A program made the position numbers and the translations under genes. Below the pieces are notes generated by a model that saw only the letters and a program-made list of their open reading frames with translations, did not search any database and had not been told where the DNA came from. A stretch of DNA of 64,000 bases from Candidatus Omnitrophota bacterium (GTDB taxonomy: Bacteria > Omnitrophota > Gorgyraeia > 2-01-FULL-45-10). The stretch covers positions 62,096 to 126,095 of the forward strand of contig JAPLME010000010.1 in assembly GCA_026387175.1 (NCBI GenBank), given 5' to 3'. This document shows, in pieces, positions 1-58,229 of the stretch. The number at the start of each line of letters is the position of its first letter. Positions within the stretch are counted from its first letter, which is position 1.

Positions 1-3000
1 ATAGAATCCACTATGCGCTATGGTATCACTGATATAGTGACAGGTGCCCCCCTCGCGCAATATTTCGACGCACGTGGTAACGCGAAATACCAGATTACTA
101 CAACCTCAAACCAGTTAAATATTACGGGCGATATAGCAGAGGCGCGTTTCCAGATGGTCGATACGACTCAGCGTGAAAATATTAAATTCGACGACCGTGG
201 CAGGGTCACTTCATATAAAGAAACATCCATAGACGGCGCGACGAACGGCAAAGTTATCACAGAGTCTGTAAATACGATCACCGGCTATGATTATAAGAAT
301 AGGACCACGGCGATCGAGTCGCTCGCGCACAAACATGGCGAGGATGTTGCTACCGGTGAGATCCTTGACGAAACATCCTGGACGAAGCGGGAGATCCTCG
401 AGTATGACTCGCTCGACAGAGCAATAAAGTATGACGAACTTTCGAGAAGCACCACTACCGGAGCTTCTCTTATAAATGGAAAGCTCGATGGAGGCATCCT
501 TGCCACAAAGAATACGACCGGCGTGGAGTACTATTTTAACGATAGCATGAAATCATACTGCGAAGTAACCTCTGCGGATAATATCGATATGAAGACCGAG
601 ACATTACGTTATGACATGAAGTATACCTATCTGAATCAGCTCATCTCCGACACCGAAAAAGCCCATCAGCATGATATAAGAGCCGATCTTACAGTCATTG
701 TCGATATCACAGCCATTACCGAGAGAAGCGGCATGACCTACAATGCTGTGGGCCAGATGACGGAATTCCAGGTTAAGTCCTGGTCGACGGCGGCTACAGA
801 TAGCGTAAGCACCGTTAAGACGACTGGTATGACTTATAATCAGCTAGGACGCATGATTGACTCGACTTCAGATGAGACTACCGGGAATGTTGCCGGAGAG
901 GCGATCAGCCGTATCGAAAGCGCGCTCCAGGGCTTTGACATTCTCACTCTCGAAGAGAAGAACGCGAAACTCGATGAGATAGGCGGCGCTCTCGGCCTCA
1001 AAAAAGGTGATATCACAGCCCGCAAAGCTCTCATAGACATGGGCGTCGCAAACTTTATAACAAGACTTAAGTCTGTCGGGGCTTTTGTCCTGAACTGTGC
1101 CGCCGCCGCTCTCACTTATATACTGGGAGCGTTCGGTAAGGTCCAAGCGGCCTACGAGACCATAAAGAGCCTGATCCTTACTGATCTCCTTACGGGCGGT
1201 ATCAATCCGGCAAATCTCACCGGCGCGATCGAGACATCAATGTACGCCATTATAAAGACGGCCCAGAAGAATGGCCTTAAGTTAGCCGGTGGAGCTGTGG
1301 CTCTCGACAGCCTTATAGGGATTGTGAATACGGTTAATCCCGTAATAGGTGTATTTATGAAAGGCGCCGAGACACACTATGTAGCTATCATCTATATTAC
1401 GCAGACCGTTATCAGCTACGTAGAGTCAGGACAAGTAGTTACGGTCGAGCGAAGCGAATTTGTAAAGCAGTATCAGTATACGGGAAAAGTTATCGCTAAT
1501 GAGGATATGCTTCGCGCAGACGAAATCCTGAATAATGAGGAACAAATTAAAGCCATTCGGGCGACAAAGAGCGCGGTCGAAGAGATAAATCCATTCACTA
1601 CCATAAAGACAACGACCGTGAAGACCAATATCCAATATACCAATATACAGACGGGCCTGGCGACCACATGGCATGAATATACCACGAGCGATAGTTCACC
1701 CGATAAAGTAACCAATGCCGATGTCGAAGCGACCTATAACGACAAAGGCCAGATGCTCAGCTATCGTACGCGTATGACAGAGACGGGCATTAACGGCGAG
1801 CTTGGCAAGTTAGAGAGGTCTTACAGCTTCCTTAAGAACAATTTCAGTTACGATCAAGCAACGGGGCAGGCCTCGCAGTGGCAACAAACCACATATGCGG
1901 ACACTCAGTCACCGGATCTTGTGATAGATTCGACCGTTGAAGTTACTTATGACTCGCTGCTACACATGGCTACATATACTGAGCAGGGCCATAAGAAGAG
2001 TCTCACTGATGAAGCTATATATAACGAAGCTTATACGCTAAAAAAGACAGAGCTTGTCTACAATGCATTCGGCCAGGCAGTATCCTGGACCGAAAAATCG
2101 TCATCAGATCCAGCCTTTGATCCCGCCCTCAATAAAGTGACCACAACAAAGGTCGTTGTCGAATATGATGATCTTGGCCGGACAGCGAAGAAGACAGACA
2201 ACATTAGTGAAAATGGCCCTGGCCTTGACCATACATATACCATAGTAAGCGGGATAACGGGTTATGACGGCCTAGGCAGTGTAAAGCGTGTGACTAAGAC
2301 CACGACCGATGGCGATAAGATATCGATCGAGAGCGATACGGAAGATAAAGAATATGATAGCCAGGGCCGTCTTGAGTATTCAAGGACGGACGTAACCGAG
2401 AAGTCTAAGGATGGCATTAGCCTTAATCACAAATATGCAGTCGAAACTTTCATGAAGGACATTGCCGGTGTTACACAATACTACAATGACCTTGGCCAGA
2501 TCCTCAAAATGAAGCGGGTTACCATAGATGACGGCAAGATTACGACCGAGACTGACACAGAAAACAGGACATACAATTCGCTAGGGCAGTTTAAGTATTC
2601 AAAGGCTGCAATTAGAGAACAATCTAAAGATCTTGTCAGCCTTGACCATACCTATACACAAGAGATGTCGGCAAATGAGTATAATTTGCTCGGCCAGATC
2701 AGCATTATGATCCGTACCACCGTTGATGAAGGTAAGACGACTACCGAGATCGATAGAGCGAAAAGGACCTATACAGAGGCTGGCCAACTCAAAACGTCGG
2801 ATGTTGAAATCACGGAGAAAGGCGGCGCGCTTGATCATATGTATAGGACTTATACCGATATTCAATTATATGACGGCCTCGGCCAGGTTGCGCGCATGAC
2901 CCGCACCACGACCGATGACGAAAAGCAAACCGTAGAGGCTGATGACGCCGTTGTCGTAAGGACCTATGACTCGCAGGGCCGTCTTAAGCATTCGAAGACC

Positions 3001-6000: not shown

Positions 6001-9000
6001 CTCACGACGGTCAGGACCATGTCGGATATAGTATATGACACACTTGGCCTGATGATTTCATATAAGGATGCGGTAACCCAGAAGTCGTATAATATTAACG
6101 GCGATCCGAATTCTGGGATTAAATTCAATACCACGGATACCGTTATAGGTTATCATACGTCAAAAGATAAAGATGACGCAGGGAATCTCACAGGATACCC
6201 TCTCGGAGGCACGGTCATATCAAAATCGGATATTCAGGGTGATGTCACAACCTGGGTATATGACGCGCGTGACCGGCTCGTGAAGATCCAGAATCCGGAC
6301 GGCAGCATAACAGAGTACGTCTACGATGGCGACACCACTCTTATCAGGAAAGAGATCTACACTCTTGCCGATGGCAAAACAAAGACCACTAAAGAATATG
6401 ACGCAGACGGCAGGCTTGTGAAAATAGCTAACCCTGACGGCACCACGATCACATGGCAGTATGACACATTGGATAGGCTGAATATAATAACTGACGCGGA
6501 TGGCATGACTTCTACTTACACCTACTATGGGAATACTTCGATAATAAACTCGATCGAGGATTGTGATAAGAATAGCAGCGTCGTTAAGAAACGGCAGGTC
6601 TACTCCTATTATGACGCTTCCAGAAATCTTGTCGCAGCTGTAAATCTGACCAGCACCTCGGCATATGAAACTTATACTATAACCGAAACTGATCTCGACC
6701 CAGGCTACCTCTCATTCGGCGGGAGCGACTATCTCCAGCTTCCTCTCATACAGTTGAAACAGAATGGCACTATTGCGATGTGGGTGAAACTGAGCAACAC
6801 AGGTGACATGGATATCTATGGCGATGATGCATCAGGAAAAGGCGGCGGCCTGCAGGTGAAGGATGGATTTTTCTGTAGTGTTGTGGGTGCCAATAGATGG
6901 TCGACCGGTGTAGCGGTGGCGGCCGATAAATGGTACTACGTTGCGCAGGTATTTACCAGTACATCGACCACGACTTATATCTACGACGCTGATGGTAATA
7001 AATTATCGGGCGCGACAAAAGCCCTCGCCATTACCCAACAAAATCCGGCTGTCTGTCAGCTCCAGGTAGGAAGATCCTCGACAGACGTTGCTTTAGGCCT
7101 TAACGGTTTCAAGGGACAGATCGATCAGCTTGCGATATATAATACGGCGCTTTCAGAACAAGAGATGGATATGGGTAGGTATTCCGAAGGATCTGCCAGG
7201 AGCATGACCCAGAAGCTTATGGCATTCTATTCGTTCAATGATGGCACCGCGACCGATCTGACCGGCAATAAATATAACGGTTCATTTATCGGAGATCCGT
7301 CTTTTGCCATGGGGGCCAGGCCTGGGGTAAAAACCAGCTTTACTGCCGATCAGTATGATAAGAATGGCACATATATAAAGTCCTATCTTCCTGTTTTTGG
7401 GAGCTGCCCCATAGCTACGGCTGCGCTTTGGCCTAGCGGATGCTGGTCTCAGTCAGGCTTGCAATCGTTTTCTGCAGGTAATGTGAACGATGGAGGCAGC
7501 AGCATCGCTTTTCATACAGACTCGGCTGCTGTTGGTTCATGGCTTACACTAGATGCAGGCTCCGCAAAAGCGTTTACCGGAGTTACGATCTGTTCCGGAC
7601 GATCGATCCAGCCGAATGTTTCCAAATGGGAAATCCAATGGTCCGATAACGCTTCATCGTGGACTACAACAGGAGATAAAATCGATCTTAGCACCAATTA
7701 CGGTGGTTGGGTGGAGGCGCGATGGGCAAGTACCGCAGGCGCCCATAGATATTGGAGATTATATAAGCTGAATGCAGCCTCCGGCGGCGATTATGTCAGA
7801 GAAGTTCAATTCTTTACAGGGACCGATAAATATGCCAATGCCAATCCTGTGTCGAACACCGCCTTTGTTGCGTCCCCTGCGCCTGTACCGCCGATAACTA
7901 CCGGGCCGATTGGACTGACAGTAACTACGCCGCAGGCGAGCACTGCTTCTTACCCGCCGCCGGTAGTTACTTCGGTGCAGGAAGATCCCAACACCCCCGG
8001 TATCCTTCTTGTCACCTGGGGAGATAAGGGCGGCACAACGCAGACGCAGCGAAAATTTGACTTATCGACAAAGGATTATGTGCTGAATCCTGATGGCACT
8101 ATCTTCGAAACATCGATAGCTTTACCTGCCTTGGCTCCGTCAGATACTCAGACCCTTAATCTCGACGGCGGCGCTTCCATAAAGTATTGGGACCAGCCGT
8201 ACGCAGACGGCGCGTTTTACGTAACCGCATACCAGAATTACGATAACAAGGGTAATGCAGTAGGCGAGGTGCAGTATATCGGCCAGGCGCGTTCTTCGTC
8301 CGGGACGCTTCCTGTCATGACAAAACTGTCCGATGGCGGTTTCGCGCTCGTAGGGTGGGATGAAGGCAAAAAGGAGCTATACTATACCGAAATTTCGCCC
8401 AAGATGAGCGTCTCTTCGAATACCTCCCGCACGGATATCAAGTATGATATCCTGGGCCGTCTCATGACATATACCGATGTATCGAGCTCCTCCGCCTCGC
8501 CTGACCTTGAGACGACGACCGATAGGTCGGAGACCAGATACAATGCCCTCGGCCAGGTCACCTCATATATCGAGACGACGGCGAGCAAGGAATATGGCAG
8601 CGCTATATATCTTGAGAATACTAAGAATATGAGCGCTATCACATACAATACCCTCGGTCAAATGACGGAATATGTGGAGAAGAGCCACGATATCAGTACC
8701 GCTCCCGCTTCGGAGAAGATGCTCCTTGACACTGAGACCACCACGACGCGGACCATAAAGACTTATGATAAACAGGGCCGGATGACGGAGTATACGGATG
8801 TGATCGCGCCGGTGAGATCGAATGATGCCGATATTTCCATGATCACTACGACTAAGACCGTAAAGGATATAACTTACGACCCTTCGATCGGAGGCATGAG
8901 CGGATATCATGAAGACTCCAATGATAAAGGCGGCATGGTGCGAATGGATGATGGGAGCGTTACGTACGCGCTTGACATTACAACGACGACAGACCGATCC

Positions 9001-12000
9001 GGCGTCATATATAATTCCCAAAACCAGATCGCCGGATATACGGATAAGATCACGACAGACGGCGATACAAAGATCGAAACTAAGACTATTTCCGGGATGA
9101 AGTATTCGCGCACCGGACGGTCGGCCGGAAGCGTTACAAAGACGCGTGAGACCGGATCCACCGTGTTGGACGGCTATACATACGCGCTTGATTCTACTAC
9201 GACTACCACCCAGACCGATCTTGTTTATAACAAACTGGGGCAGCTTACTAAATATACCAATGTGACGATCGCCGATGCCGCCCCTGAGCGTGCCACTACA
9301 CTATTCATGAAGAATATCAAGTATGACGTGACGGGCCGCATTATAGACTATGACCAGAGTACAGTTGAACGGGCCTCTAATACATATGACCTTAACGGCG
9401 ACGGGGTGCTTGATCAAGGCGATCTTGATGCCCTGACAGAGTATATGGTCAATAAGGCGAAGGCAGATCCGGGGTATGGATATTGCCGCATCGATATCAA
9501 TGGCGATAACAAGATCGATGCAATTGATATCGATATTATCAAGAGTGCGTTGAAACCCTTTAGCGAGGGCGGTTTTGATATGGATGGGAACGGCTATATC
9601 GACGATATGGATAAACAGATATTCAGTCAAAATCTGATGGCGATCATCTCCGAGCACGCTAATATTCAGGGTCCCATTTATGACCAAACCACTCTCGCTC
9701 GTGTTCCCGAAGATACTACGGGGAGGCAGTTCGTCTGTGATGGCTATCTTACCGGAACTAATTATAAGGTCTATGTCGATGGAATAGAGCAGGCCCAAAC
9801 CGGTGTATATACGGTGAGTGAAGCAGATGAAAAAACTACCATCACCTTTAATGCACGAATAAATACCAGCAGTACAGTAGCTCTTAGTCGGCTCATCCAT
9901 GATGCGCAGCCCGGATGGGATAAGCGCTTTGACTTGAATGGCGATAATAAGATCGACCTCTCCGACCTCGAAGAGGCGTCAAAGAGGATACTGGAAATTA
10001 AAACACTCCTTATAGAGAAGTCCAAGGATATAGATTACCTTGCTCTATCTACGAGCGGTAAATATGACCTGAGTTATTCCGGAGGCGGGTACGACCTTAA
10101 TAACGATGGTTATATAAGCGCTGATGATATTAAGACATTCTTCGCGACCGTTACTGTTGATGGCCAACAGATGCCGCTCTACCAGGCATGGCTGCAGGAT
10201 ATGATGGGGAGCGTTGTTCTCAAAAATCCCTCCGGGGGTACGACGGGTAATCAATTCGTCACGAACGGCTCTCTTTCAGGAAAGCTTTGCACTGTCTATG
10301 TCAACGGGGTTGCTCAGGTGCTGAATTCCATCGCATCTAACGGATATACAGTGCTTGAGACAGGGACAGGAAATAATATCGTCAGCACAATTACCTTAAA
10401 AGCAACTATAACTGATCCAAATGCGAAGGTAGAGCTCTCCGTGCGTAAGCTTGAGAATAGCGTTACCCTTGCCAGCGTTTCCGGAGATACCACCGGAAAG
10501 CAGTTTACCCTAGACGGCTCTCTTGCGGGAAGGCTTTACACGGTCTTTGTCGATGGGACAGCTCAGGTTCTGAACAGCGGATATACGGTGAGCGAAATGA
10601 CGGACAGCACTACACATGCTGTTACCACCACGATCACCTTCACTACTGCGATACCCATCGGCAAAACAGTGAAGCTCTCCCAATGGGTGACCACGCCTGA
10701 CAATATCGCGACGGCTAACCTGAAGTCAAATCTCCTACCGCTCTACGTTAACACGGTAAAGGATGGCAAGACGGATGAATTAATGGTTGAAAACCCGTAC
10801 CTTGAAAGCCTTGCTGCCCAGATTAATAAAGTCATAGCGCAGTGTTTTAACATTAAAGCGACAGCACAAGGCACTCCTGGCACGTTTAACTTCTCCAGTT
10901 ACCTGTATTCATTAGCTAATGCTAAATATAACATCACGCTTGATAAGGTAATAGGTACCGGCGATGGATCGACCACGAGATTTGAGACCGGCCTTACGCT
11001 CGCAGATAAGAGCTATCAGATTTTTGTTAATGGTCAACTCAGTAAGTCGACCAGCTACACTGTGGATAGCGCTGGCGCTGTAACTTTCACTGCGGCTCCC
11101 GCCTCCGGCCAGGAGGTCAAGATATCGATTACACAGGTAAGGGAGAATAAAGATATAGGCCCCGGTAATGGGTCGACCAAGAAGTTTAATATCGGCTATC
11201 CGATCGTAGGCAAGACGGTCAATGTCTATGTGGATAGCGTGGTGAACGGCGTGGTAGTGAGCAGTGCGCTAATGGCTAACAACACCTATGACGTTGACCC
11301 GATTTTAGGTACCATTACTTTCAAAACAGGTACTCCGGCACCGCCAGCCAATACGAAAGTCAGGATAAAAGTGGACAATTATGACTGTTCCGTTGATGAC
11401 GCCGCCAAGACCATTACCTTTAACAATAATATTTCTACGTCTGGCATGGATGTCATGATCAAGATCAATAGCTCCGTAGGCACACTTTCCGCCCTGGATA
11501 TCATCCAGACTTTTGACAGCAATGGCAATAAAGTCCTCGATATAGCCGATGTTAATAAGCTATGGAACGACTGGAAGAAAGGAAATTTCGTATTACCTGG
11601 AGACCCTACTGATACTACGGGTGCGGGATTTAGTGGTATTTACGCCCTGGAGCTGGCAAAGTTCCTCGGCGGCGGGCAAGCTAATGGCGCTATCTCCGGG
11701 GTGCTCGATACATCCTACAGCTTTAAACAGGGAACCGCCGACTTTATGGCATTGCTCTCTCTGAGTTCTGGCTTATGGGCAGCGACGGACTATTTAGAAT
11801 TATTGAGCAGGTTCAAAGGCTTCACCAATATTGCCGTGTATGACAGTAATTCCGATAAACAGATCAGCGCAGTAAGGGATACTATTACGGGAAAAACAGC
11901 TGATGAGACCGCGTTTAGTAATCTTATACAGGATCTTCTGTATAAGAGCGGAGTAATAAAGAAAAGTAGCCTCGCCAGCGATGACCCGCTTCTTAATCTT

Positions 12001-15000
12001 AATGTCAATAATGACGACGTGATCAGTAAAGCCGACTGGGATGTTTTTGGCACCCTTATCGGCAAGTACAATAAGACCACGGACGGCCAGATCACTGCGG
12101 AAGACGCAACGGCTACTCTTATTTCTGTGGGAAGCGACGGCAAGAGTTTTGCGCTGCCCTCGAGTTACATGACGACATATTCACTGAAAGGGAAAACCTA
12201 TAAAGTCTTCAGCACTATAGGCGGCACATCGACAGAGATAAAATCAGGTTATACGCTTGACAGCACAGGCAGGATCATAACATTTGCTACAGCGCCTGGC
12301 GCAGGAACAACCATCACGATAGATTTCGATGATAAAGCGACTATCACTACCCTTCTTAGCAATTATGGAGCGGTAATTAAACCGAGTGATATAACCACAT
12401 ACCAGGACGCGATAAAGGTGGCGCTGCAAAATAGAGGATCTTTGGCGAGCGGTCAGACCGGATATCTGCTCGCTTACGATAGAAATAATGACGGCGTGAT
12501 CGATAAGTACGATATCAGCGCGAATGACAAGATCATTGATCAGCTTCTCACGTGGAATGGCGGCGCTGTTACAAACGATAAATTTGTTACCTGGGGACCG
12601 GTTACATCATCATCCGGCGTCTTCTCACAGCTTCATTGTAAAGGGTATGATATCGGCGCTGACGGCGTCATATTTATTGATCCAAAGAATTCATTGGACC
12701 CATCGGATCCATCTAGATATTACAGCATACCTGGCACTGACTATGAATTTACCTATGCCGATGATATCGCCTGGGCAAAGATCACTCAGGCCCATTTCGG
12801 AGACGCGACCCAGGCCGATAGGATCGAGAAATATATATATCTGAGTGAAATACCCGACTCATTTATCAGGAATAATCCCGCGTTTGTCAATCTGACCGAT
12901 ATAAACCAGCTTAATGTTTACCAGTACGGGACAAGCACCACAAAGATCATCACCCAGAAGGACATAGATCTTCTGAAGAAGGACTCATCAAAGAAGGCGT
13001 GGGGTGAAGCGCTTGAGAATTATTTAAACGGAGATACGAAAATAGGGGTTGGCAAGGATGGGAATTGTGTATTTGAATTCGATAAATCTTTGCTTGGATA
13101 CGCTCCTGATGGGAATAATCCTTATGAGATATACGTAAACGATACCAAAGTCACAAATTATACCGCAACCGTAGGCACCAGCACTGTAACCATAACCTTC
13201 ACCGCCGCACCGGCAAGCGATGCGGCAGTGAAGGTGAGGGTGCCCGGTACGGGACGCTTCCATCTGGGGATCATCCTGGAGGACGACGCCCAGTCGATGC
13301 GGTTCCTGGGCAAGGATTACATTACGTTGGGGTATCCGACACCATCGACCGGTTTCGGTCTAAATGAAATTGATAAATCGAGCGCCTGCACGATCGAAAC
13401 GTGGGTCGAATTCACGAATCTTAATACGGCCGGCGATCAGGTCATATTGAGCCAGGCAGATAACGGGAGTGGCCGTGCCATATGGCTAGGGTACAACAAT
13501 AATATAACTACGCCGTCATCCAGCAAGCTGAAGTTCTCTTTCCATGGTGTAACCGCTGAGCTTGATATGAAATTTATCCAGGGCGATTGGCATCATATTG
13601 CCGCGCAATATAACCCGAATGTCAATAGGGCCAGCGGCGAGGCCGGCGTGATCACGTTCTTTATAGATGGTGAGGTCTATGCGCCAAGCCGCTACCAAGT
13701 TGGCTCCCTGGTCCAATATGGAGGTTATCTCAATAAGAATATAATAGTGGGCGCCGATATCGTAGGCGGAGTGGCGACGAACGGATTTAAAGGGTCTATA
13801 GATGAGCTCGCCGTATACTCTTCAGGAGCGCTCACTGCCGCGGACATAAAGAGCCATATGGATAATAAGCGCAAGACGGATCCTTCAACAGGTATTGTCT
13901 CAGTTACGGATACGAGTATGCTGGCATACTATTCTTTCGATGACGGCTCTGTTCGTGACCAGACAGGGCATAGGAATGACGGGTCAATCGCCGTAGGTTC
14001 GACCACGGCCGGCGGGTTTGAGACAGATGTCTTCTGCACGCTGAACCAGAAGAAAGACAGGCTCCTGTTCGACAAAGATGGTGACGGTATTATAGCTATC
14101 TATAAGACATACGCCGGACCGACCGATACGGTCGGCACGTTCCTCGGCGCCCTCGATCTTGTCCCATCGTATGCGAAACTCATCGCTCCGAACTCCGGCG
14201 CTACTTTCATGGTGAGCCAAAAGATGCGGGATATCAATGGCAGATTAATCGACAATGTTCGCTGGGGTTCGGTCGCGCATTTAGACCTTAATGCGGATGG
14301 CTGCGTCTCTATCGATGATACAAAATTCAGAGGCGTTATGGAGAGCTCTGTAGCCAACTATGTCACGTTCACTTATCCCAGCGGCTCAGATATTTTCAGC
14401 GAGCTTTATAAGCATTATGACGCGAATGGCGACGGAATTCTGAGCGCTGTAGATGATGAAGCGGCTTTCTGGTCGAAGGCAAACCTTAACGATGTTAATT
14501 GGGGCGATCCGGAGTACCGCTGGCAAAGCGAGGATGTCGTTTCCCAGGCTGATATAAATACACTGAAAACATATATCTCTACTTATGGCAAGGTGACAAA
14601 GACTGGCGGGTCCTACCGGCTCAAGTATGATATTAATAAGGATGGTATCGTGGATGGTAATGACCTGACCAAGCTCGAGGAGCTTATCTCTACTTACTTT
14701 GATTACCAGACAGATACCGGCAGACAAAATATGAAATATAACGATCTCGGCCAGCTCATCGGTTACGAGGAAACCTCTACCTCCAGCACCGATTCTATCA
14801 CAACGACCACAAAGATGAAAGAGATGAAATATGATGTAAAGGGCAGGATGCTCACTTATATTGATGAGTCACATGAGGCTCTTAGTAAGATTACAGGCAC
14901 ATATACTGATGCCAATGACGTCAAGGTAACATACACAATAGGTAATCTGGCTTCATTGGATGAGTTTAAAAATGTTGTCGATGAAAATGGTATTACAAAT

Positions 15001-18000
15001 AGAGTAGAAGACAAAGACGGCATTCTGGATGAATCTAATGCCGCCGCTATTACAGATACCAATACACAGAGCCTCCTGCGCCGCGCGCTTGCGGAGTACG
15101 GGGTTAATGGCGCGATCGCGCTTATTGACATAACCAAGACCACGAAACGCCTATCCGCCTCATTCAACAATCTGGGCCAGATCGGCGCTTATACCGATGA
15201 AAGCACAGGTACCGATATAACTGGCTCGACCAGAACAGCGATTTTCAGCGGCATCACTTACAACATTAGCGGCCAGATGGAAGGATATAATAATATCTCG
15301 CAGGAAATCGTGAAGGATGGGGACGCGATAGTATACACGACAAATTCCGAGACTGATCGCAGAGATATTAACTATAACCTGAAGGGCCAGGTCAAGGGTT
15401 ATACAGACTACTCATATTCCAAAGATGAGACCTATATACCCAATCTTATAACCGTGAATACTATGTCCGATATCCTCTACGATTCACACGGCATGGTCCT
15501 GAGCTCCAAATCGCTGACTAATGAAGCCTCGACCATGGAATGGATCGACCCGACCGGTAGCAATTGGATTACAACGGGTGCGGATGACCTTAAGATCGAA
15601 AAGTGGTATCTCTCTGCGGACGTTAAAGCCTCATCCGCGTTCACCATTGCTGCTACCGTCACCGATAATAATGGTATCGAATATAAGATCTGTCTGGTGA
15701 GCGGCTACAACGTCGGGGATCCGAAGAAGATATATGATTATAACTCCACCGAAAAAACTATTACATACTACCTTGGCGATGTTGCGAATGGAGAATGGCA
15801 TAACATTAACGTAAAAGAGAGCGATTCACTTAGTTCCGGCCTTAAGTGGCTTATGAAGCAAACGGTCAATGTCGATTTCGGCCATCTGAAGAATATCAAG
15901 ATAAAAGGGTCCGATGTGACGATAAGGAACCTCAGCCTTGCCGAGAATCAAGAGCTTGCCAATATAGAGACGGTTTCGCTCGCTACTTCAGAGTGGATAG
16001 CGCCCGATAACACCACGAAGGCCAATTTAAAGGATACGGTACCTGCCGACAAACCGGCGCTTATTGGCTCAGGATCCGGTACACTTTCGAAGACCACATC
16101 TATCGAAAAGTCCGATGTAAAATATGATCCATTAAACGGTAATACCCTGTCGTATTCCGAAGAGTCGCGCTCCAGCGCAAGTCCCGATCTCAAGACTGTA
16201 AAGACCCTCGCGAACATGGCCTACAACGGCCTCGGCCAGGCGCTCGGATATGATGAGTCGAATCAGGATATAGAGAATGCCCTTGTAATCACGAGCCCCG
16301 CAGGTTACAGCGCCTCGATCAGGAGTATCGAGCCCGGCACCGATTGGGGCTATGGGCCGCGCATAGAGGGTAAGTCATTCCTGAGCTTTGATGTAAAAGC
16401 GACTAACGATTTTAGTTTTTCAGCCTGGGTACATGTCAATAACGGTGTCAATGATTTCACAAGCTGGTATTTTGTCACCTTTAAATCAGGCGATGGCGCC
16501 AATGAGTCCGGGGGCGGCGCCGACCGGAATGTCCTTATCTACCTCGGCTCGAACGCGACCGATGGCGGATGGCAGAGTTACACTTTCGACTTGAAGGATA
16601 TCTGCTCCAGATATATATCGTTATCACCGAAATATTTGAGCGTGGGAGAATTCCATATTACAGCTTCGAATGTTTCGATGAAGAATCTTAAGGTCTCGCA
16701 ATACGAAGATGGGAAGGACCCTACGACAGTTTCACTCGATCCGAAGCTCTGGACAAAGCCGGGCGCAATCTCGTTAGATAACGGCCCCGCGGCGGATACT
16801 AACATCTACCAGGTTCAAAAAGTGCTGACCGCGGTAAGCGAACTTTGTTTCCAGATAAAGCCGGGAGCCGGCGATTATGGCGTGAAAGCCCGTCTTGGAG
16901 TCAAAGATAGCGAAGGCGTAGAGAGTATTTATCTTATAGACTTCGTATCGGATCTCAATAGCGTAAAAGGAACTCTCACTCTTGTGCCCAATGCGGAGAG
17001 CGATAGTGATGTTAAATATACCCTTAGATATAATATGGGGGATCTTACCAATGAGCCGCAGGAAAGCGGTTACTACACTATCAGCGTTGATTTGCAGAAT
17101 ATTCTCAATAACGCCGCCGCGCTGACAGACAGTAGCGTCCAGCTCTTGTCCTTAAATTCCGTTGTATCGCATGGGGACGTTGATTTTATTAATAAGACAT
17201 ACACTTCCGATGAGCTTACAAAGCCTTCCGGCGATGAGGGCGATGCCTCCATGTTTACCAATCCTGCCGCTATTGACCCCGATGCTCAGGGCAGTTGGAT
17301 CAATAGGTACCTGTATTGGTCCGGCAACAGTACTTGGCCGAGCGGCTATGGCGATGAGATGTGGCATAAGCAGTGGCTAAAGGTTTCGTATATACCTAAA
17401 GCCTCTGCGGCAATGACGCTCTATGTAAAAGTTGTCGATAAAGCCGGTAATTCCTATAACCTTACCTATAATAAGCTCGAGACGGCTTCCGGAACGCCGG
17501 AGGTAACGAAGATGTGGAATCTCGCCGAAGACCTGGCGAAGCAATATAAGAACGCCGCGGCGTTCGACCACGTCAAGTATATCTCCCTCGAATGCGCCGA
17601 CGGGACCTTCACCAGCATAAAACTATCGGACAGTTTCAAGGAATGGGATGATCCCACGCGTATTATCGACATTCCTACTCAGAAGGAAGCATGGGTTCTG
17701 AATCCGTTCAGGGACGATACCCAGGATTACACCATAACCACAGACACAACCACAAACAGAACATACTATAAGGTCCGCTCGGCCGCCTTGAGCGATACAG
17801 AACTTTTTATGAACCTCAGAGACGCTGCTGATACATCGGATATCTATAATGATATCCTTAAGAGCAAGAACAAGCTGACATTCTATCTCAGAAATCTTGA
17901 AAGCGGCAAAGATTATATATTTGCGGATGGCGAACCGTTCATTTGCTCGCTCAATGTGCAGGATAAGGACGGCGTTAACCATTCGATCGTAGTCAATTCG

Positions 18001-24000: not shown

Positions 24001-27000
24001 AGCAAGTATAATATTGTCGATGATTCCCTCCTTACGGATATGGACCAGAAATATCTTAAATATTACGAAGAGTTCCTTAATGCCCCGAAACAGAATTTCC
24101 TTAATATAAACAGCCTTTCGGAGGCCCAGGTGAACGCCCTGATCAATGATGTCGGAGTGGCTGAAACTATAAATCTTGCGAGAGACGGTACCGTGACGCA
24201 TGCCGATGCCGTCACGCCGGGTTCGACATATCTTATCAGCGGGTGGACAGGGGGAAATGTCACAGTTCCGGAAAGTATGATCGTTCAGTGGCGGGAAGAG
24301 TCGTGGTCGAATCCTCGATTGGGATGGCAACCCGAAGACCTGGATTATAATAAAGACGGTGTTATCAATGGCTCGGATGGTACCAGTTTTGCGGAGATTG
24401 GCACTATGGTTGCTGCCTTCCAAACCCTCTTCGGGTCCGGGGCAAAGCTAACCCCGGAGCTGAGTGCGGCATATCACGCCCTTGATACTAATGGGGATAA
24501 CAAGATCGATATTCTGGACAAAAAGCCTGCTTCGAATCCTGCTAATACCGCGTTCAATGCTTATATTGATGCCCTTTTGAAAGCGGACGGGGCGGTTTCG
24601 CAGGGAGATGCCGGGAGAAAATTCCTCTCCTATGTTAATCTAGTCACGGCGGCCAATATAACTAAGTGTCAAGACCGCATCGCCCAAGTAAACAGAGATT
24701 TAGAGGCAGCCGGGTCGATCAACAGGCTTACGCCCCTTACACCCAACGATATCCTTAGCGGGATAATGGCGAGCGGCCAGAGTTATCTCGACAATCTTGC
24801 GCTCGTCACGAAGGATAGCATAGATACATCTATGCGTACAATCTCCGCGGCCAAAACCATCGTTACGACACTTAATATGAGCGCGGATGATGTCCTTAAA
24901 AATATATTAACGGACGGCGGGAAGTTCCTCGGGAACCTCGCGCTTGCCACGCCGGCTAATATAAATAAACTCCAAGACCGCATCGGCACTGCAAACGGTG
25001 TATTAGATGCGACCAATCAAATCAAGGCTAATCTAGTTATGTCTGTGAAAGATATCTTTAATAAGATATTGACGGATGGCAAGCCGTTCCTCGATAACAT
25101 AGACCTTGTCATAGCAACTAATATAACTGCGTTTCAAGGCCTCATTACCACGATTAATAATGCATTGCCAACAGGGACAGATAAACTTACGACCCCCCGG
25201 AGCGCGAACCAGGTCTTAAACGATATACTAACCGGCGGTAAGCAGTTCATTGACAATATCAATATCACGGATGAGAGTAAGAAACTCTTTACGGCAGCCC
25301 GAATAACCGCAGCTCAAGTTTGCATTGCCAAAGCAAATGAGGGATTGGCGGCGACTGACCAGCAGCTTACGCCTCTTAAGCCGGATGATGTCCTTAACGG
25401 TATAATATCGTACGGTAAGAAGTTCATCGATAATATAGGTCTCGTCACAGCCGGCAATATAACCACGCCTCAAAACTGTATCAGGGCGGCTAATTTGACA
25501 TTAACCGCCAAGATTCAGGTCCTGACAGCGGATCAGATTTATAGCAGGATAATATCGGGCGGCCAATGGTTCCTGAGCAACATTGCGCTCGTAACGGCGG
25601 ACAATATAACAGCGGCGCAAAACACCATTACCAAAGCTAATTTAGGCCTTACACCCCCGACCGTAAGCCAGCTCTTTGACGGGATAATAGCGAGCGGTGA
25701 GCAGGGCTATGAATACGATGTCGATGGTAACGGTCAGGTCAACCTTCAGGACAAGCACACTGTCGAATATGACGATATTGTGAAGAGGATTAAAAATGGT
25801 AATGCTTCCTCAGGTGATTATGCAAGACAAGCTGTCCTTGATAGCATATTCAATGACTATATTATCGCCAAAGGCTCTGTTTCCCGCGGGGAAAAGTCTG
25901 ATGTAAGGCTGAGTGACGCTACGGTAAATTCTGCCCTGGCTGGAGACAGTAAATTCTTATATTCCCGCTCTACGGCGCCGGTATTTAAAGTCGAAGATAC
26001 CGCAAAAGATAAGAAGATCTACTTTAAGATAATCAACGGCCCCGTTATAAAAGAGACGGATCCCGCAATCACATTTAATATCTCAAAAGACGGCGCGGTA
26101 AATGACTTTATGATAGATGAAACGGATGGATGGACATACGTGAGAGAGATCTCGTCCGTAGCTGACCGGGTGCTCATCGATTATAGTAAGGGCGAGAGAG
26201 TACTTATCGACGATGTAGAACAAAAACCCGAAACATATAGAATTGATACCGATGAAACTACAGGAGCCAAGACTATTGTATTCCTGAATTCACCGGTACC
26301 CGAGGGCAAGTTGGTAACGATAAAAGAGATAAAGACCGAAGCGTCTCCATATGTAAACAGTGATACATCCGGCGTAGATCCGGTGACCAAATGCGTTTTT
26401 GACGGGCAGCTCATACCTCTATCCGGTCTTGCTAATGAATATGAGATAAAGGTGGACGGCGTGGTTCGCCCGCATTTTTCCACGACAGACCCGAAATACG
26501 AGAACTACACGGTCACATGGGACGCAAAGACCGGGTATACGACCGTTGTTTTAAAGATGATGGACAGGTCGATCACTCCGACGTATACCACTGACGGTAA
26601 TAATCCTTGGTGGTATGGGTTCCTGGGCAAGCAACTTACGCTCGGCAGAACTATAGGCAGCGCGACTATAGACTGTGCTTATGATCCTCTCAACACCTAC
26701 GTGATATATCAGGACGGCAAAGAGCTAAAGGCCTCGGACTATACCGCCTCATCCGCGCAAGGCGGGAAGACGTTGATAGTATTTACCAATTCTTTACCAG
26801 GCACCGCGATCTTAAAGGCAAAATCCCTGGAAGGTAATCCTGTCATTGTAGCAACATATGCCCGCGTTACTACACCAATTAGTCGTACTTCAACCGATAC
26901 CAATAGGACAAGATATGCTATGAATGGATTCCTCCGCTCCTACGATCCTCTCGTACCCACAGGCGAACCTGCGGGTGAGCTGAAATTGTCGAGCCTGTGG

Positions 27001-30000
27001 CGCCAAGGCATCTTTTACCTTGAGAATGGGTATAATGCAAATCTCGATAAGAATTCTGACGGGTTCATAGAGGTCGCGCCATATCTGACAACGACCGATA
27101 CGACGTCGAAGCTGAGCGGTCTCCTCGACCAATGCAATATCACCCTGGCCCAAGGGTCGAATCCTACGAAATTCTACGCTGACCGGAACAGTGACGGCTA
27201 TATAGATCAGGCAGATGTTAACGATCTGATCCAATCTAGTGATGAGAACCTGAAAGCATGGGGTAATGCTATTCTAGGTATCCTCAATAAGAATAGCGAC
27301 GTTAACAGTATAATTGACGACAATGAGAGACTATGGATTGCGGATCCGGCTCCCAGTGAGGCCGCTCAAAAGGACGCCGCTATGATCCGCAGCTATCTCC
27401 TTACGCCGATGCATATACCCGGCACGATCATTGTGGATAAGGGGTTTGATTATATCGACCAGATGGATATTAATATACTTAAAGACACTTCGACAGAAGA
27501 TGTTGACTGTGTGACGAAAAAAGAATGGGCTAAGACTATCAAAAATTACCTTGCCAATAATAATAAGCGCGATCAGGGTATTCTCTATTGGCAGAGTGAT
27601 TATTATTCCAGCCATATTCTTCCGGATATGGATGGTAACGGTGTTGTAAATAATGCCGATATAACGGTCGTTGTGAAAGATGCCCAAGGCCACGAGACAC
27701 GGGAAAATAAGTCCGACATTTTGAAGGGATGGCTGAACGGCGATGTGCCCCAGGGAGATTACGAGCATATCATAATGCCCGGCGATGCAGGATGGGACTC
27801 TAGGTACGATCTCAATAATGACGGCATATTAAGCGGAGCAGACCTGGAAGTACTCGCAAGAAATCTAACCCTGCCCCAGGATATTGTCACTGAAGCAAAT
27901 AAGACATTGAGTGACGACAACAAGCTTTCGGATCTGACCACGTCCCAGGTTCTTAACGGCATAAAAGCGAATGGCCAGGGCTATTTCACCAATGTCAGGC
28001 TCGTCACGGCGGCTAATATCACCACGGTTCAAGCCCACCTCAATGAGGTGAACAATTTATTGGCGGATGGTAGCAAGTTTACGCGCGCTACTGAAAACCA
28101 GGTCATGACCGCAAATCAGGTCCTCGATCAGATAATATCAGGCGGCCAGAAATTCCTCGACAATATCCTGCTTGTCACAAAGGATAGTATAGAGAGTTCT
28201 CAAGCGCATCTCAATGATGTGAACAGTCAATTGAAGGGGGTTAAGTTTACGCTCACCGAGGGCCAGGTCATGACCGCGGATCAGGTCCTTAACGGTACAA
28301 TAATGAACGGCCAGACGTTCCTGAGCAATATTATGCTTGTCACAAAGGATCGTATAGTCGATTATCAGACTTCGACCAAGGCGATAAACGATGGGTTGGA
28401 TTCAGGCAATCAACTTACGTCCTTTACCCCCGACGAGATCCTTAGCGGGATAGTAGCAAACGGGCTGGTGTATTTCACCAATATCAATCTCGTCACAGTA
28501 GATAATATAACCACGTCTCAGGCCCATCTCAATGAGGTGAACAATTCATTGCCGAACGGTAACAAGTTTACACGCGCTACTGAAGACCAGGTCATGACCG
28601 CGGACCAGGTTCGTGAAGGTATAATAATGGACGGCCAGAAGTTCCTCGATAACATCAAAGATCTCGTCACGAAGGAGAATATAACCAAGTCTCAAAACTA
28701 CATCGTGGAAGCAAACAAGACATTATCGGATGGTAACCAGCTTACGCCACTGACCGCGGACCAGGTCCTTAACGGTATAATAGGGGGCGGCCAGAAGTTC
28801 CTGGACAACATCAGTTCCACACAGGCTGTTTTGGATGAATTTGTTCCTCACGGATTTGTCGCTCGTTTTAACGAATACATGATAAATAACGCGGCGCTTG
28901 TCGATGATCCGAAAGTGAGCACTGATGCTTATAGCGTATTGCTTGCCACTCATCCCGGAATTACAGATATCAATCTCGACCATAAAATAGACCATTTTGA
29001 TCTCGATACCTATTCTCTTAATTCGGAGACGCGTACGGAACGTGATCATGTGACCTATGAGACTTCGGGCAGGCTCTTTGGATACCGCGATACTGTTACA
29101 TCCCCTTCAACCCCATACCAGGTGACTGAGAGCATCGTATCGGACATCTATTATAACGAGAAGGGCCAGATGGAAGGATATAATCAACTGGATAATAGTT
29201 CGACCTTCCTCGAGTTGAACGGCAAAGACAGCGATTATGCCATTACGACCGAGAATGGGACTATGCCGGATCTCAATATAAGGAATGGGTACCTGAATTT
29301 TGATTTCAACGCCGCCACAGGAAAGTCATTCGAAGTGGGGGTGAGTATAGAAGTTGATAAATATATAGGGACATCCTTGACTCAGGAAGAGTACACTATC
29401 CATTTCGCTCTTGGTGAAAATACCGGCGAGATTAGCTACGATTCCAATACGCCATTCGAGGCTACCTATAATCTCGGCGCCGAATCAGATCTCTGCGACC
29501 GTAAATGGCATTCGGCCCTTCCCTTAAATCTGAGCCTTTATAGGATAATTGACCAGATAGCCAGTAAAAATGGCAGTCCTGCCGGCGCCCGCTATAAGCT
29601 TAACCATGTAAAAGCCATAACGCTTAAAGGCGAAGATGTCCAATTTAAAAATATATCGCTTTCGGCGGATAGCCTTCTCACCGATATAAAACCGGTTTCA
29701 GTCAAAAACTCGCAATGGAATAATGTTATTAAGACTGATCTCGGTACCTTCAATGCGCCCTACGAGAGCGAGCTTACCATAAAGGATATCAAGCGTAGAA
29801 ACTTCAAATATAATGAGCTGATGCAGTCCACCGGCTACCAGGATACGGTCTGGAGTTCCGATAACCCGGCTATCGAGACCGTAAGGACCATTTCCGCCAA
29901 CGTCTATAATGGGCTCGGCCAGATCGTAAGCTCTGACGAGAAGACCGAGACGCGCCAGAACTCGCTTACGGTGAGCTCTCCCGGCACATCGCTTTACGGT

Positions 30001-33000
30001 ATCGTCAGTAAGAAGGACAACATCTTATATAAAGACGCGAACCTGAAGTATTACGCGGATTCTATGTCCGCGGGAGTGCCGCTCGGGTTCCTCTCTTTTG
30101 AGATAGACGCCAAGAAGATGGAAGACCTGCGCGATCCTAGCCACAGTTTTAATGTCAACGCCCCGTCCGAGGATTTCGTCATTTATGTCGCGGCGAAGGT
30201 AAAAGTCGATGAAATAAACGGTAAGACAGAAGACGTCCTTGTAGCGGTGCATATTACCGAAGGTACAGAGGGGTGGAGAGATCCTTTAAACGAAGAGAAG
30301 ACAGACGAAGCGATAGGTGTGAAAAAGGTATACGACTATTATCTCTTAAACCATGTGAATAGCGATGGAGTCATTACCGACGCAAAGGATACCGGCCTCA
30401 GCATCTATGATTTTGATGCCAAAGAGAATGACAAAGATAACAATGAAGTGAAGCGCATAGCTCTCGCCAAGGAAAATGGGACCCTTGCCATAGACAGATG
30501 GTTCCGCATAGAAAGTATCAATCTCGAAACGATATGTGCCGGTAATATTCTTTCAGATAGCCACAACACACCATATGTCTTCGACCACGTTAAGTGGTTC
30601 TACATACGCGGCGGCAGTTATACGCTGCGCAACATGGTAGTTGCGGCGGATAAGTACAAATCAAATGCGGAGAAGATCTCTCTGGCGAGCTCTGACTGGC
30701 AGGTCTATGCCAGCAAAGCCACCATTATCAGTAATGATGATGCAAGCGGTTCTTCACCGGAGTCCCTCATACTCGATATCAGCACCGATTCGAGCCAGGA
30801 TACGTCAATCTCCCCCACTGACGCGGCCGGTAATACCCAGAACCTTAATTACACCGGCAAGAACTACCTGGTATTTGATTACAAAAATGACACAGAGGTT
30901 CTGGATACGCGCGACACCTTCTATATAGCCCTGTATGTTACAGGCAAGAATGGCAAGAATTACTCCCTCTATTACTATACTAATAAAATCGGTTCTCCGG
31001 TCTCAAAATATGAAACCATAAGCGGCGGATGGGCAAATTTCGGCATGGCTGAAGCATGCAAGAGCGATGTTGATTACCAGAATAAATTCAACACCGAATA
31101 TGTAGCCAAAACAGAAACAACTCCGGAAAAGGTGGGGGATGGTTTTACGACCGTTGTGAGAAATATCGATCAGGACCTGCTCGACCAGTTCGGCACCGGA
31201 CTGCAGAAGATAGGGTCGCTCTCTATGGTTACCAGGGGCGGCAAGTATCAGATCAGGAGCCTGAGATTTACCGCTTTAACCACTGCAAGTCCTACAGCGG
31301 ACTCTTGCGGCAACATTAAATACACTGACATACAGGGCAAAGAAACCAAGGTCCAGCGCGTGGCCCTTGATAAAAAACGGTGGAAAGCGACCAAGGGCGA
31401 TATATCGCTTGCGAGCGCCGGCAAGGTGACAACATCCCAGAAATGGGATATGAAGTACAATACGCAAGGCCAGCTCCTGTCTTATAAAGACAAATCTTCC
31501 AGTTCGACCGCGAAGATCATCTCTATGAATGGCGCTAAGGATGCCACTGTCTCTGTAACCGCCTCGCCATCAGAACCAGTATATCCATGGGGTGTCACAT
31601 CAGGAACAGCCGAGTTCACGCTGCTTATCGGAAATATGTATGACGACACCGAAAAGAATAATAATATTGTTATCTACTTCGGAGACTCTAAGGTTGGCTA
31701 TCAACTTACTATAAGGGCGACAGATGACCTGGGAGCCGACGCTTGGGCATGGCAGCTTGCCAAGACGGACGCGGAAGGAAACACTATGGGCCAGAGTGAA
31801 ACTAACAGTGGCCTGTGCGTTACCGGCAAGGAAGCGGATGGCTGCAAGCCGCTCAAAAAAGGCGGTTTCTATAAATTCAGAGTGGAGATATCGTCAGGCT
31901 ATGTCAGGTTTAAAGAGATATATACCAATACCGTAATAGAGCTGAAAGATCCCGATTCGCACTGGGACTGCGGCGCTCCGATCCTGAGGGTATCTGCCCG
32001 GAGCATGGACGCATCTATCGGCGCCATGTCATTTAAAGACTGGAGGACCGACGCTGACTATACTTATAACAATAACTCGCGCATCACGCCTTCCACCCCA
32101 TCGAATACGAGCGTAAGCATAACCGATCTGAGCAACCAGACCACCAAAGTCGATGCCATGTCGTACAATGAGAACGGGCTTATTCTTTCTCAGCGCGTTC
32201 GAGGCGTCGGCGCGAGCTCGCTCTACAAATTTACATATATAGATACTGATAAAGCCGCCATTATTGAGGTCAGTAACAGCACATCCTTTACTGTCCTGGA
32301 TGGGAATAATAATAAGATGTATTCCGACAGCTGGGCTGAGACGGGATCATCGGACACAGATCCGTCAAAACTGAAGAGGGACGCGGGCGCGGACAGCGTT
32401 AACTTCATGAGAGAGGTAAGCGGCTGGGACAAGAAACCGTCGTACATGGCCTATAACAATATCAAGTATGAGACGGTTAATGGGGAAGAGGGTGGGAAGG
32501 TAATAGGCATCGACTATATAGTCGACCATAAAGGGTACAGGTATGAGTTTGACAGCGAAGGGAGGCCGTCAGCGCTTTATGCAAAGGATACTTCTTTCCT
32601 TGCGGATAAAGTCGCCCACGTAACTTATTCATATGATCCCGACCTTGTCGTCAATATATACAGGGATAAATATGACGGCGATCACCATACCTCATTGCTT
32701 AAATTCAAGGCTCATTATGATGCGCACGGCACTCTGATAGCTCTCACGGGTACCGATGTCGGCGAGAACGAGAACTGTTATTCGGACTATAAAGCCGAAA
32801 TAGTTTATGATGAGGTGACCGGCGAGATCCTTACCGCCAACATTATGGAGCTCAGCACTACAGGCGATAATAAGACGGTCTTCAGCCAGTCGCAGGAGAT
32901 TTTCTATAACGGGACGCTTGTCTCGTTCACCGGGACCAGCTGGACGCTGGGTTCATCCCTTTCAAACACTGACGGCAATGTATCACTGGATACCCTTTCC

Positions 33001-56244: not shown

Positions 56245-56269
56245 CGCCGTAGTTTGATTCGCGCATCTC

Positions 56270-56298
56270 TTGCAATACATGCCACCCTACGGTATAAT
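56270..56298 (+). promoter_or_regulatory. Sigma70-type promoter (TTGCAA, 17-nt spacer, TATAAT) for lgt; predicted start site falls on the lgt ATG, giving a leaderless mRNA
   Basis: TTGCAA at 56270-56275, a 17-nt spacer, then TATAAT at 56293-56298. The lgt ATG at 56305 lies about 7 nt downstream with no Shine-Dalgarno sequence. Confidence 0.5.
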
Positions 56299-56304
56299 TA
56301 CTCC

Positions 56305-57081
56305 ATGCATCCATTCCTATTCCAAGGCACGCCTTACGAGACGCCGAGCTGGGATGTTATTTTATTTGCCGGATTTTTTATCGCCTTGACAATAGCGCTT
56401 ATTGTAAAACCCAAAGATTTTCCGGTTACGCGCCGCGGTATCATAGCTTTCACCTTCATTACCTTATTTACCGGTTCACTCGGGGCCAAGCTTCTCTATA
56501 TCTTCCTTCACCGCGAAGAGCTATTCGGCGCTATGCACTTGTCATTCAGTGACGCCTTCCTATCATCCGGATATGCCTTTTTAGGTACCCTTGTCGCTGA
56601 GCTCATTACGATGTGGGCATTTACAAAGATCAGATTAAAACCGATCAGTTTTCTTGTCTTTGCGGACTTCTTAATGCCATTTCTTCTGTTACAGCAGGCG
56701 TTTACCCGCATTGGCTGTTTTTTAAACGGCTGTTGTTATGGCCCGGTAACAAACCTGCCATGGGGATGCGTTTTTGTGGATGAAACGGTCAAACGTCATC
56801 CCACGCAGATATATTTCGCCATAGCCCTCGTGATAATATTCTTTTATACGAGACATCTCTATAAAATGAAGCTGCCCAAAGGCATAGTTTTCTTCACAAC
56901 GCTCTTTACCTACGGCCTTTTCAGGTGTATACTTGAGTCATGGAGGGTCGATAGTCCTCATATCCTGGGGCCTGTCACGCTCGCGCAGGTCACGACATTT
57001 ACGCTCGCCGTTATCAGCGGCGCCTGTTTATATGCGATCATGGTACGAAACGGTCTTATAAAATCAAGGAGGAAGGGATGA
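56305..57081 (+). CDS. lgt: Prolipoprotein diacylglyceryl transferase (Lgt), 258 aa from ATG 56305. The ORF track extends it to a TTG at 56254.
   Basis: Polytopic membrane protein. It has the RIGCFLNGCCYG...WG motif (compare E. coli RLGNFINGELWGR) and HPTQIYFAIALVIIF (compare E. coli HPSQLYE). The N-terminal W..GFF region aligns with the E. coli WYGLMYLVGF region. Confidence 0.8.
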   Translation: MHPFLFQGTPYETPSWDVILFAGFFIALTIALIVKPKDFPVTRRGIIAFTFITLFTGSLGAKLLYIFLHREELFGAMHLSFSDAFLSSGYAFLGTLVAELITMWAFTKIRLKPISFLVFADFLMPFLLLQQAFTRIGCFLNGCCYGPVTNLPWGCVFVDETVKRHPTQIYFAIALVIIFFYTRHLYKMKLPKGIVFFTTLFTYGLFRCILESWRVDSPHILGPVTLAQVTTFTLAVISGACLYAIMVRNGLIKSRRKG

Positions 57082-57725: not shown

Positions 57726-57743
57726 AAAGTAATAGTCTCCATC

Positions 57744-57769
57744 GTAGCCGACATTTAAATGTCGGCTAC
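57744..57769 (+). terminator. Perfect 11-bp stem with 4-nt loop, a plus-strand terminator candidate (no T-run)
   Basis: GTAGCCGACAT-TTAA-ATGTCGGCTAC sits 19 nt after the stop of the 57078-57725 CDS. Confidence 0.45.
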
Positions 57770-57810
57770 GACATTGATGGTACACTTCATTAAGAATAGA
57801 TAATAACTCG

Positions 57811-57844
57811 AAAAAAAGAAGCCCGGCAGGATATGCCGGGCTTC
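57811..57844 (-). terminator. Rho-independent terminator of the cold-shock gene (minus strand)
   Basis: GAAGCCCGGCA-GGATA-TGCCGGGCTTC is an 11-bp stem. On the plus strand it is preceded by seven A (a U-run on the minus-strand RNA). It lies immediately 3' of the csp stop at 57862. Confidence 0.75.
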
Positions 57845-57861
57845 TTCATCCTAAGTCATTG

Positions 57862-58062: not shown

Positions 58063-58184
58063 TATTCACTACCTCCTTCCGGTGGAATTAATAGTAAATA
58101 ATGGCATTATATGAGGCCCTATTTACTACCGGGCGCATTTTACCATTTTCCTTAGATGCCGGCCAGCACTTTTTTAAAAAACTC

Positions 58185-58214: not shown

Positions 58215-58229
58215 CTGGTTGATAAACAT

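Follow-up and report, generated by a model that had tools for sequence, protein, structure and literature searches.

The 64,000-nucleotide stretch of Candidatus Omnitrophota DNA considered here (contig JAPLME010000010.1; below, the window) carries a giant open reading frame (ORF), whose segment 6670-7815 encodes a LamG/ConA-like domain followed by a discoidin (F5/8 type C) domain. The identities and the predicted folds of both domains are confirmed by profile searches, structure models and fold comparison. On balance, we believe that they are adhesion modules on the presumed extracellular part of the giant protein and bind ligands at the surface of a host or prey cell, most probably glycans. 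The Omnitrophota are ultra-small, host-dependent or predatory bacteria. Their giant proteins are believed to serve in attaching to other cells and perhaps in attacking them, and most of the sequence of these proteins is unannotated.

Two domains of ligand-binding type and their folds

The segment 6670-7815 shares the frame of the giant ORF and corresponds to residues 2220-2601 of its product; residue numbers in this section refer to this translated fragment unless stated otherwise. An earlier note on the window had assigned a LamG and a discoidin domain to the segment. The assignment is upheld, and its limits are accurate: position 7815 falls at the last discoidin residue (..EVQFF), and 6670 lies 15 codons before the start of the Pfam LamG match. 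The Pfam search suggested in that note gave significant hidden Markov model (HMM) matches to both families rather than none, and in the suggested structure prediction both domains fold confidently with AlphaFold2.

The first domain, LamG1, matches Laminin_G_3 (PF13385) with 58.1 bits, the cut-off being 27.6 (E=1.5e-15, residues 16-165, positions 1-149 of the 151 in the profile). The first AlphaFold2 run, made with a mixed LamG and discoidin alignment, modelled the discoidin domain well and LamG poorly; rerunning the prediction with a LamG alignment in matched register (A2) remedied the latter. The strands of LamG1 lie at residues 12-157, with the predicted local distance difference test (pLDDT) mostly 80-96. 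In the model from A2, LamG1 together with the following 90 residues (255 residues in all) is all-β, with the mean pLDDT of 81 and the predicted template modelling score of 0.79. Foldseek comparison of the model with the PDB retrieves the LamG domain of PAPP-A, PTX3, SAP, CRP, the putative carbohydrate-binding protein 4dqa from Bacteroides, neurexin LNS2, and laminin and agrin LG domains, with E-values down to 1e-9. The model of LamG1 thus has the two-sheet jelly-roll fold of the LamG/pentraxin type.

The end of the Pfam match at residue 165 is not the end of the conserved sequence. LamG_3 repeats have in common the motifs FDGxxDY, TxxAWV, WxHVA, YxNG and FxGxIDExRIYNRALS, followed by GLVAYYxFDDGTAxDxSGNGxNGT, and in tandem LamG_3 arrays this last consensus forms the first (N-terminal) strands of the next repeat. 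The element KLMAFYSFNDGTATDLTGNKYNGSFIG, which follows LamG1, fits it in alignment A2. Many LamG homologues align as far as residues 205-235, since the stretch after LamG1 matches the next-repeat consensus of the tandem arrays. No further LamG repeat follows. AlphaFold2 places strands at residues 183-187, 205-207 and 211-214, with pLDDT of 93-97 for residues 181-210, and the element apparently completes LamG1 as a part of that domain, its packing on LamG being read from the confidence values alone.

The second LamG domain (LamG2), which the earlier note had placed at 13258-13860, was found at about 13369-13851 with 54.4 bits against PF13385 (E=2.1e-14); it aligns in A2 and is followed by the same β-element. 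Nowhere are the two copies better conserved than in the region of this element, where identity reaches 37.5% over 64 residues, compared with about 24% overall; in BLASTP the match runs between LamG1 residues 135-190 and residues 4590-4653 of the giant protein. Judging from the models and the alignment, it is probable that each LamG was cut out of a tandem array with its register shifted. The strands that are N-terminal elsewhere would then be supplied C-terminally, by circular permutation.

The discoidin domain matches F5_F8_type_C (PF00754) with 36.6 bits against the cut-off of 28.2 (E=5.9e-9, residues 265-375, window 7462-7794, positions 12-121 of the 127 in the profile), and the sister model F5_F8_type_C_2 yields 22.9 bits, under its cut-off of 27.8. 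The Pfam matches of LamG1 and discoidin are about 100 residues apart. The AlphaFold2 model has pLDDT of 90-98 over residues 250-382. Its best-scoring Foldseek matches in the PDB are all carbohydrate-binding modules (CBMs) of the CBM32 family solved with sugars, namely those of NagH (2w1u), GH89 (4a42/4a44) and AlyQ (7d2a); further matches are neuropilin b1/b2, the C2 domains of factors V and VIII, and the discoidin domain of CASPR2. A single-sequence search of the PDB with the LamG-discoidin fragment gave nothing significant. The β-sandwich fold of the discoidin model is confirmed by the Foldseek comparison. All 11 invariant positions of the subfamily alignment (A3) are kept in the discoidin domain of the window, and the subfamily is recognised by the motifs WSQSGL, FHTD, QYSDD..W and HRYWRLYKTNAAxGG.

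Relatives and probable function

Among 1.84 billion representative proteins searched exhaustively with HMMER, 662 are homologues at E<=1e-3 and 120 of these at E<=1e-10, and they divide cleanly into a LamG group and a discoidin group. The closer LamG relatives include the Omnitrophota LamG-repeat proteins P0033 and P0046 and the JGI 'surface protein' P0098. The best discoidin match, P0025 (61% identity), has GNVGIGT repeats that read as tail-fibre-like. The discoidin subfamily also includes a protein of an uncultured Mediterranean (uvMED) phage; an Elusimicrobia protein whose discoidin domain shows 60% identity and which also has fibrinogen-C/COLFI-like matches; and the Wolfebacteria protein MBN2197627.1, with an N-terminal pilin methylation (N_methyl) motif and a domain 46% identical to that of the window. 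The N-termini of several other discoidin relatives read as bacterial or archaeal pilin-like or phage-tail-like. In the genome scan, the discoidin profile found two loci only, in Elusimicrobia and Wolfebacteria. A word-indexed homologue search with the fragment gave two weak discoidin matches and no self-match, and the giant protein is apparently absent from that collection. The fold search in BFVD retrieved phage F5/8C, minor-tail and tip-attachment proteins, with large multi-domain root-mean-square deviations, and adds weak support. These associations point to a portable cell-surface-recognition module.

In the Wolfebacteria metagenome-assembled genome (MAG; JAFGBB010000005.1, L011:5161-9273), the discoidin-bearing pilin-like gene ends in a 128-nucleotide variable repeat (7352-7479). 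The template repeat (7948-8075) lies upstream of a gene for an RVT_1 reverse transcriptase (8257-9273). Almost all positions at which the two repeats differ are adenines in the template. By its sequence organization this locus is a classical diversity-generating retroelement, which would diversify the C-terminus of a discoidin-bearing adhesin.

The reading that we favour draws on the topology of the giant protein. A Kyte-Doolittle hydropathy scan (19-residue window, threshold 1.6) gives no convincing transmembrane segment before residue ~11,596 of the giant protein, the one weak segment being at 355-373, and the predicted transmembrane clusters appear only from there on, at ~11,596-11,800, ~15,004-15,330, 17,111 and 18,229. 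Hence the LamG-discoidin pair sits in the transmembrane-free N-terminal ~11,600 residues. The earlier note had placed the domains in the distal part of the giant protein; the lack of transmembrane segments on this side fits the topology described for Dockerin-type giants (see below), and the distal orientation would follow from it. The fragment would comprise two independently folded binding modules in one polypeptide, with about 35 flexible residues between LamG and discoidin, and would be flanked by RHS/YD-type repeat segments within a giant membrane-anchored protein. The C-terminal transmembrane clusters would hold the protein in the membrane, and the N-terminal ~11,600 residues would reach outward as a fibre in which binding modules interrupt β-helical YD-type segments. 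The pair would be one station on this fibre and, with the second LamG and the Ca-binding dockerin/EF-hand motifs, would be presented to the envelope of the host or prey, where the modules would bind surface ligands, most probably glycans. The glycan reading is plausible by analogy, because the best fold matches of discoidin are CBM32 modules and because a CBM function is known for LamG_3 modules (Sakka 2019, cited in PMC10066038). The analysis shows the domain identities and predicted folds, the source organism, the missing transmembrane segments before residue ~11,596, and the occurrence of close discoidin relatives in pilin-like, probable phage and tail-fibre-like proteins; that the pair lies outside the cell, serves adhesion and, above all, binds a glycan is inferred.

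Several observations weigh against this reading. The same Foldseek lists hold protein- and lipid-binding members, such as neuropilin b1, factor VIII C2, neurexin LNS and pentraxins, and hence the fold does not fix the class of the ligand. No signal peptide or secretion signal is visible in the ORF, whose true N-terminus may lie beyond the window, and the topology comes from a simple hydropathy scan. LamG and discoidin occur together in none of the best 150 representative matches. Further, no close orthologue of the LamG-discoidin cassette was found in the GTDB genomes or in the JGI metagenomes, the latter yielding one 29-residue match, and therefore the arrangement of the cassette gains no support from conservation.

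A serious but distinctly less probable alternative is that the modules bind protein, either by letting the giant protein assemble with itself into a coat around the cell or on proteinaceous layers of the partner, such as the S-layer or pili. The fold neighbours include neuropilin b1 with peptide ligands, APC10/Doc1, the neurexin LNS-neurexophilin pair, PAPP-A and pentraxins, all of which would suit it; however, the top structural matches of discoidin were all solved with sugars, and LamG_3 modules act as CBMs according to reference 41 in PMC10066038. Rather improbable, in our opinion, is that the modules are targeting CBMs that hold a catalytic region of the same giant protein on a polysaccharide, as in the 'cell wall degradation' model. 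West-Roberts et al. (bioRxiv 10.1101/2023.11.21.568195) do argue that giant proteins degrade carbohydrate, and CBM32 and LamG_3 modules are typically joined to glycoside hydrolases or lyases, the fold matches coming from NagH, GH89, alginate lyases, a chitosanase and domain 4 of a GH43 arabinanase. Yet Pfam detected no catalytic family across the 18,743 residues, glycoside hydrolases and lyases included. The matches to enzyme families are all below their cut-offs (Peptidase_C39 with 16-20 bits, TRM5-TYW2 methyltransferase and Polysacc_lyase weakly), and residues 10,001-18,743 (window 30013-56241), nearly half of the protein, have no Pfam match at E<=0.01.

The RHS/YD repeats that lie directly upstream of LamG1 are canonical, and YD-like repeats dominate residues 1-2,100 of the giant protein and return later between globular insertions. 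This would agree with a receptor-binding role of the cassette in an RHS/YD polymorphic toxin or in a Tc-toxin-like shell that delivers an encapsulated effector, but we consider such a role very improbable: the repeats go on before and after the cassette and do not close a shell, Pfam finds no toxin domain, and the match to the RHS_core family NF041261 is partial, with 42 bits against the cut-off of 2000. A classical RHS toxin was rejected, since a regular-expression search of the whole protein found neither the core-terminal motif PxxxxDPxGL nor any DPxG[LW]. Least of all do we expect the domains to be decaying, functionless relics of domain shuffling. The absence of the arrangement from the best 150 matches and the resemblance of the stretch after LamG1 to the start of a truncated second LamG repeat could be taken in this way. 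Against it stand the frame, uninterrupted for 18,743 codons, that is, over 56 kb, the retention of all invariant residues of the discoidin subfamily, the high AlphaFold2 confidence, and the conservation of the element after LamG between two otherwise diverged LamG copies.

As for the origin of the adhesion modules, a tentative scenario, which we think unlikely to hold in full, would be the following. The discoidin domain would come from a mobile pool of domains for host recognition, shared by phage tails, pilin-like adhesins of ultra-small episymbionts (candidate phyla radiation, archaea-type pilins) and Omnitrophota giants; it would have been grafted beside a circularly permuted LamG taken from a tandem array, and the resulting cassette would be a lineage-specific determinant of the host or prey envelope recognised.

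The rest of the giant protein and its neighbours

Coordinates of the features are collected in Table 1.

Table 1. Features of the giant ORF, in window coordinates
Feature	Position	Strand	Basis and remarks
Giant ORF	13-56244	+	18,743 aa; ORF list
Canonical RHS/YD repeats, three stretches, directly upstream of LamG1	6193-6555	+	Pfam RHS_repeat, 66.2 bits
LamG/ConA-like jelly-roll core (LamG1)	6715-7164	+	Pfam Laminin_G_3 PF13385
Conserved β-element KLMAFYSFNDGTATDLTGNKYNGSFIG	7201-7314	+	fragment aa 178-215, ~38 residues; alignment A2, AlphaFold2
Linker between LamG1 and discoidin	7315-7419	+	~35 residues; AlphaFold2 pLDDT 41-57 in both models
Discoidin domain (F5/8 type C, CBM32-like)	7420-7815	+	Pfam PF00754, AlphaFold2, Foldseek
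Pro/Ser/Thr-rich linker, then ~150 aa without assignment	7816-8415	+	sequence reading
Dockerin type I/EF-hand Ca-binding motifs	9385-10149	+	Pfam Dockerin_1 32.6 bits (cut-off 22.9), EF-hand_7 31.1, EF-hand_1 29.7
Second LamG (LamG2) with the same C-terminal β-element	13369-13971	+	Pfam core 13369-13851
First cluster of predicted transmembrane helices	34798-35397	+	aa ~11,596-11,795; hydropathy scan

Bases 1-12 of the window (ata gaa tcc act) contain no in-frame stop, and the giant frame is open to the 5' edge. The giant gene possibly starts upstream, and its true N-terminus may lie outside the window, because four stop-free codons precede the ATG at position 13 and the first residues of the ORF resemble repeat sequence with no signal peptide at this ATG. 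In full, the gene probably exceeds 18,743 codons. The same gene is present in Logan assemblies from three sequencing projects, where the contigs end within it and the product has at least 17,459 residues. An exact search of the JGI metagenomes with the 40-mer of the window start gave no match, and the upstream part of the gene was not recovered.

Only a small part of the giant protein is covered by Pfam families, namely RHS repeats, two LamG domains, one discoidin domain, and dockerin/EF-hand motifs at several places; DUF2460 and Peptidase_C39 give sub-threshold matches. The repeats upstream of LamG1 also match TIGR01643 (YD_repeat_2x) with 49.3 bits, and the partial RHS_core match covers profile positions 582-697. 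NCBIfam finds YD/RHS repeats alone, and PHROGs gave no matches. The stretch that follows discoidin has no Pfam match at E<=1, no PHROG match, and no PDB sequence match better than E=0.58; it is possibly a third module of this insertion that has escaped recognition, after which non-canonical YD-like repeats resume. More copies of the dockerin/EF-hand motif lie at ~14533-14679, and weaker ones in 24013-30012. A second Dockerin_1 match has 29.0 bits (cut-off 22.9), and EF-hand_7, EF-hand_1 and EF-hand_6 score higher than their cut-offs or close to them.

Several further features were seen along the ORF. The Peptidase_C39 match (cut-off 22 bits) covers window 1225-1476, that is, residues 405-488, near the N-terminal end of the ORF, and stands directly downstream of the weak hydrophobic segment at 355-373, the only such segment in the first 11,000 residues. 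Two blocks resembling ~35-residue helical repeats, with the motif ..LVT..NIT..Q.., lie at residues ~8201-8600 and ~9201-9600 (window ~24600-25800 and ~27600-28800) and are alike. Separate internal repeat families connect residues 3201-3600, 5201/9801 and 12601-13000. Between ~44 kb and the end of the giant gene, the GC skew shows a steep rise to about +0.2.

Among seven proteins adjoining the giant gene that were looked up, six are identical to public sequences; five of these fall in the NCBI range MCX5678596-603, assigned to a Candidatus Omnitrophota MAG, and several are recorded on a contig of 234,929 bp. On its downstream side (window 56254-60956), the giant gene is adjoined by the gene for Lgt (prolipoprotein diacylglyceryl transferase). 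The same region encodes a 215-residue Ala/Pro-rich protein with a hydrophobic N-terminus, a cold-shock protein on the opposite strand, and two paralogous patatin-like phospholipases (58230-59465 and 59739-60956), whose N-termini resemble lipoprotein signal sequences. The phospholipases could act on the membranes of partner cells.

Comparison with known systems

The presence of LamG and discoidin in giant Omnitrophota proteins is already published with the same interpretation, and the annotation of this pair is correct but ordinary. Seymour et al. (2023, Nat Microbiol; PMC10066038) described giant ORFs of the class Omnitrophia with large predicted extracellular parts containing cell-adhesion domains, among which they name discoidin (PF00754), laminin_G_3 (PF13385) and dockerin (PF00404). 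The protein of the window shares with these ORFs the phylum, several transmembrane helices combined with a large transmembrane-free part, the same Pfam families and the adhesion interpretation. It differs in coming from another genome, with no close orthologue of the cassette found; the literature describes long Omnitrophota proteins as mostly sequence-unique, which agrees with the missing orthologue. Since both the families and the interpretation are published for the phylum, the annotation adds no new principle. The published description relies on Pfam matches alone; the present analysis models the folds as well and traces the discoidin subfamily to its relatives. What it contributes is modest: confirmation at the level of the fold, the probable register-shifted LamG, the two-domain combination unseen in the best 150 matches, and the link of discoidin to pilin-like and probable phage proteins. 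Moreover, the ~380-residue LamG-discoidin fragment is one of the few parts of the 18,743-residue protein that could realistically be expressed and probed for ligand binding, which might identify the surface of the partner of an uncultured bacterium.

The Dockerin-type giants of West-Roberts et al. (2023, bioRxiv 10.1101/2023.11.21.568195) have dockerin/EF-hand repeats, discoidin repeats, a transmembrane-free N-terminal majority and C-terminal transmembrane anchors, as well as divergent SecA-related domains, C39-like peptidase domains and RHS-like β-helices. Common to them and the protein of the window are the Omnitrophota origin, dockerin/EF-hand, discoidin, the transmembrane-free N-terminal majority with later transmembrane anchors, the RHS-like β-helical regions and a C39-like signal, which is, however, sub-threshold and N-terminal here and C-terminal in the Dockerin-type giants. 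The size may also differ: 18,743 residues within the window, with the frame open at the 5' edge, against at least 30,000 residues in the three described Dockerin-type examples. The bacterial thrombospondin type 3 (TSP3) families of the Dockerin-type giants have no Pfam match at E<=0.01 in the whole protein. As for the SecA DEAD-like domain, there is no Pfam match at E<=1 at residues ~15,800-16,800, none at E<=0.01 after residue 10,000, and no PDB sequence match; these searches are at the sequence level, the SecA-like domains are described as divergent, and a fold-level test could still find one. Hence the protein resembles the Dockerin-type class but is not a proven member of it, because TSP3 repeats and the SecA DEAD-like domain are not detectable at the sequence level.

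With the CBM32 modules 2w1u, 4a42/4a44 and 7d2a, the discoidin domain shares the β-sandwich fold (Foldseek E-values from 6e-6 to 2e-4, template modelling scores to the target of 0.6-0.7) and the family F5_F8_type_C. The comparison holds at the fold level, as the sequence identity is 15-23%, and the discoidin domain of the window stands without an attached recognisable glycoside hydrolase or lyase. Closer in sequence (41-61% identity, the same subfamily) are the discoidin-bearing pilin-like or phage-tail-type proteins, such as MBN2197627.1, the uvMED protein and P0025. These are proteins of 300-1,300 residues, situated on pili or probably on phage particles, and lack a LamG detectable by that of the window.

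PF13385 is reported in up to 36 copies in other Omnitrophota giants (2026 preprint). The tandem LamG_3 repeat proteins of the phylum, P0033 (7,042 residues, partial) and P0046 (5,387 residues, partial), share the Pfam family and the motif set with the LamG domains of the window. In contrast to these arrays, the LamG copies of the window are single, and each keeps only the first β-element of the would-be next repeat.

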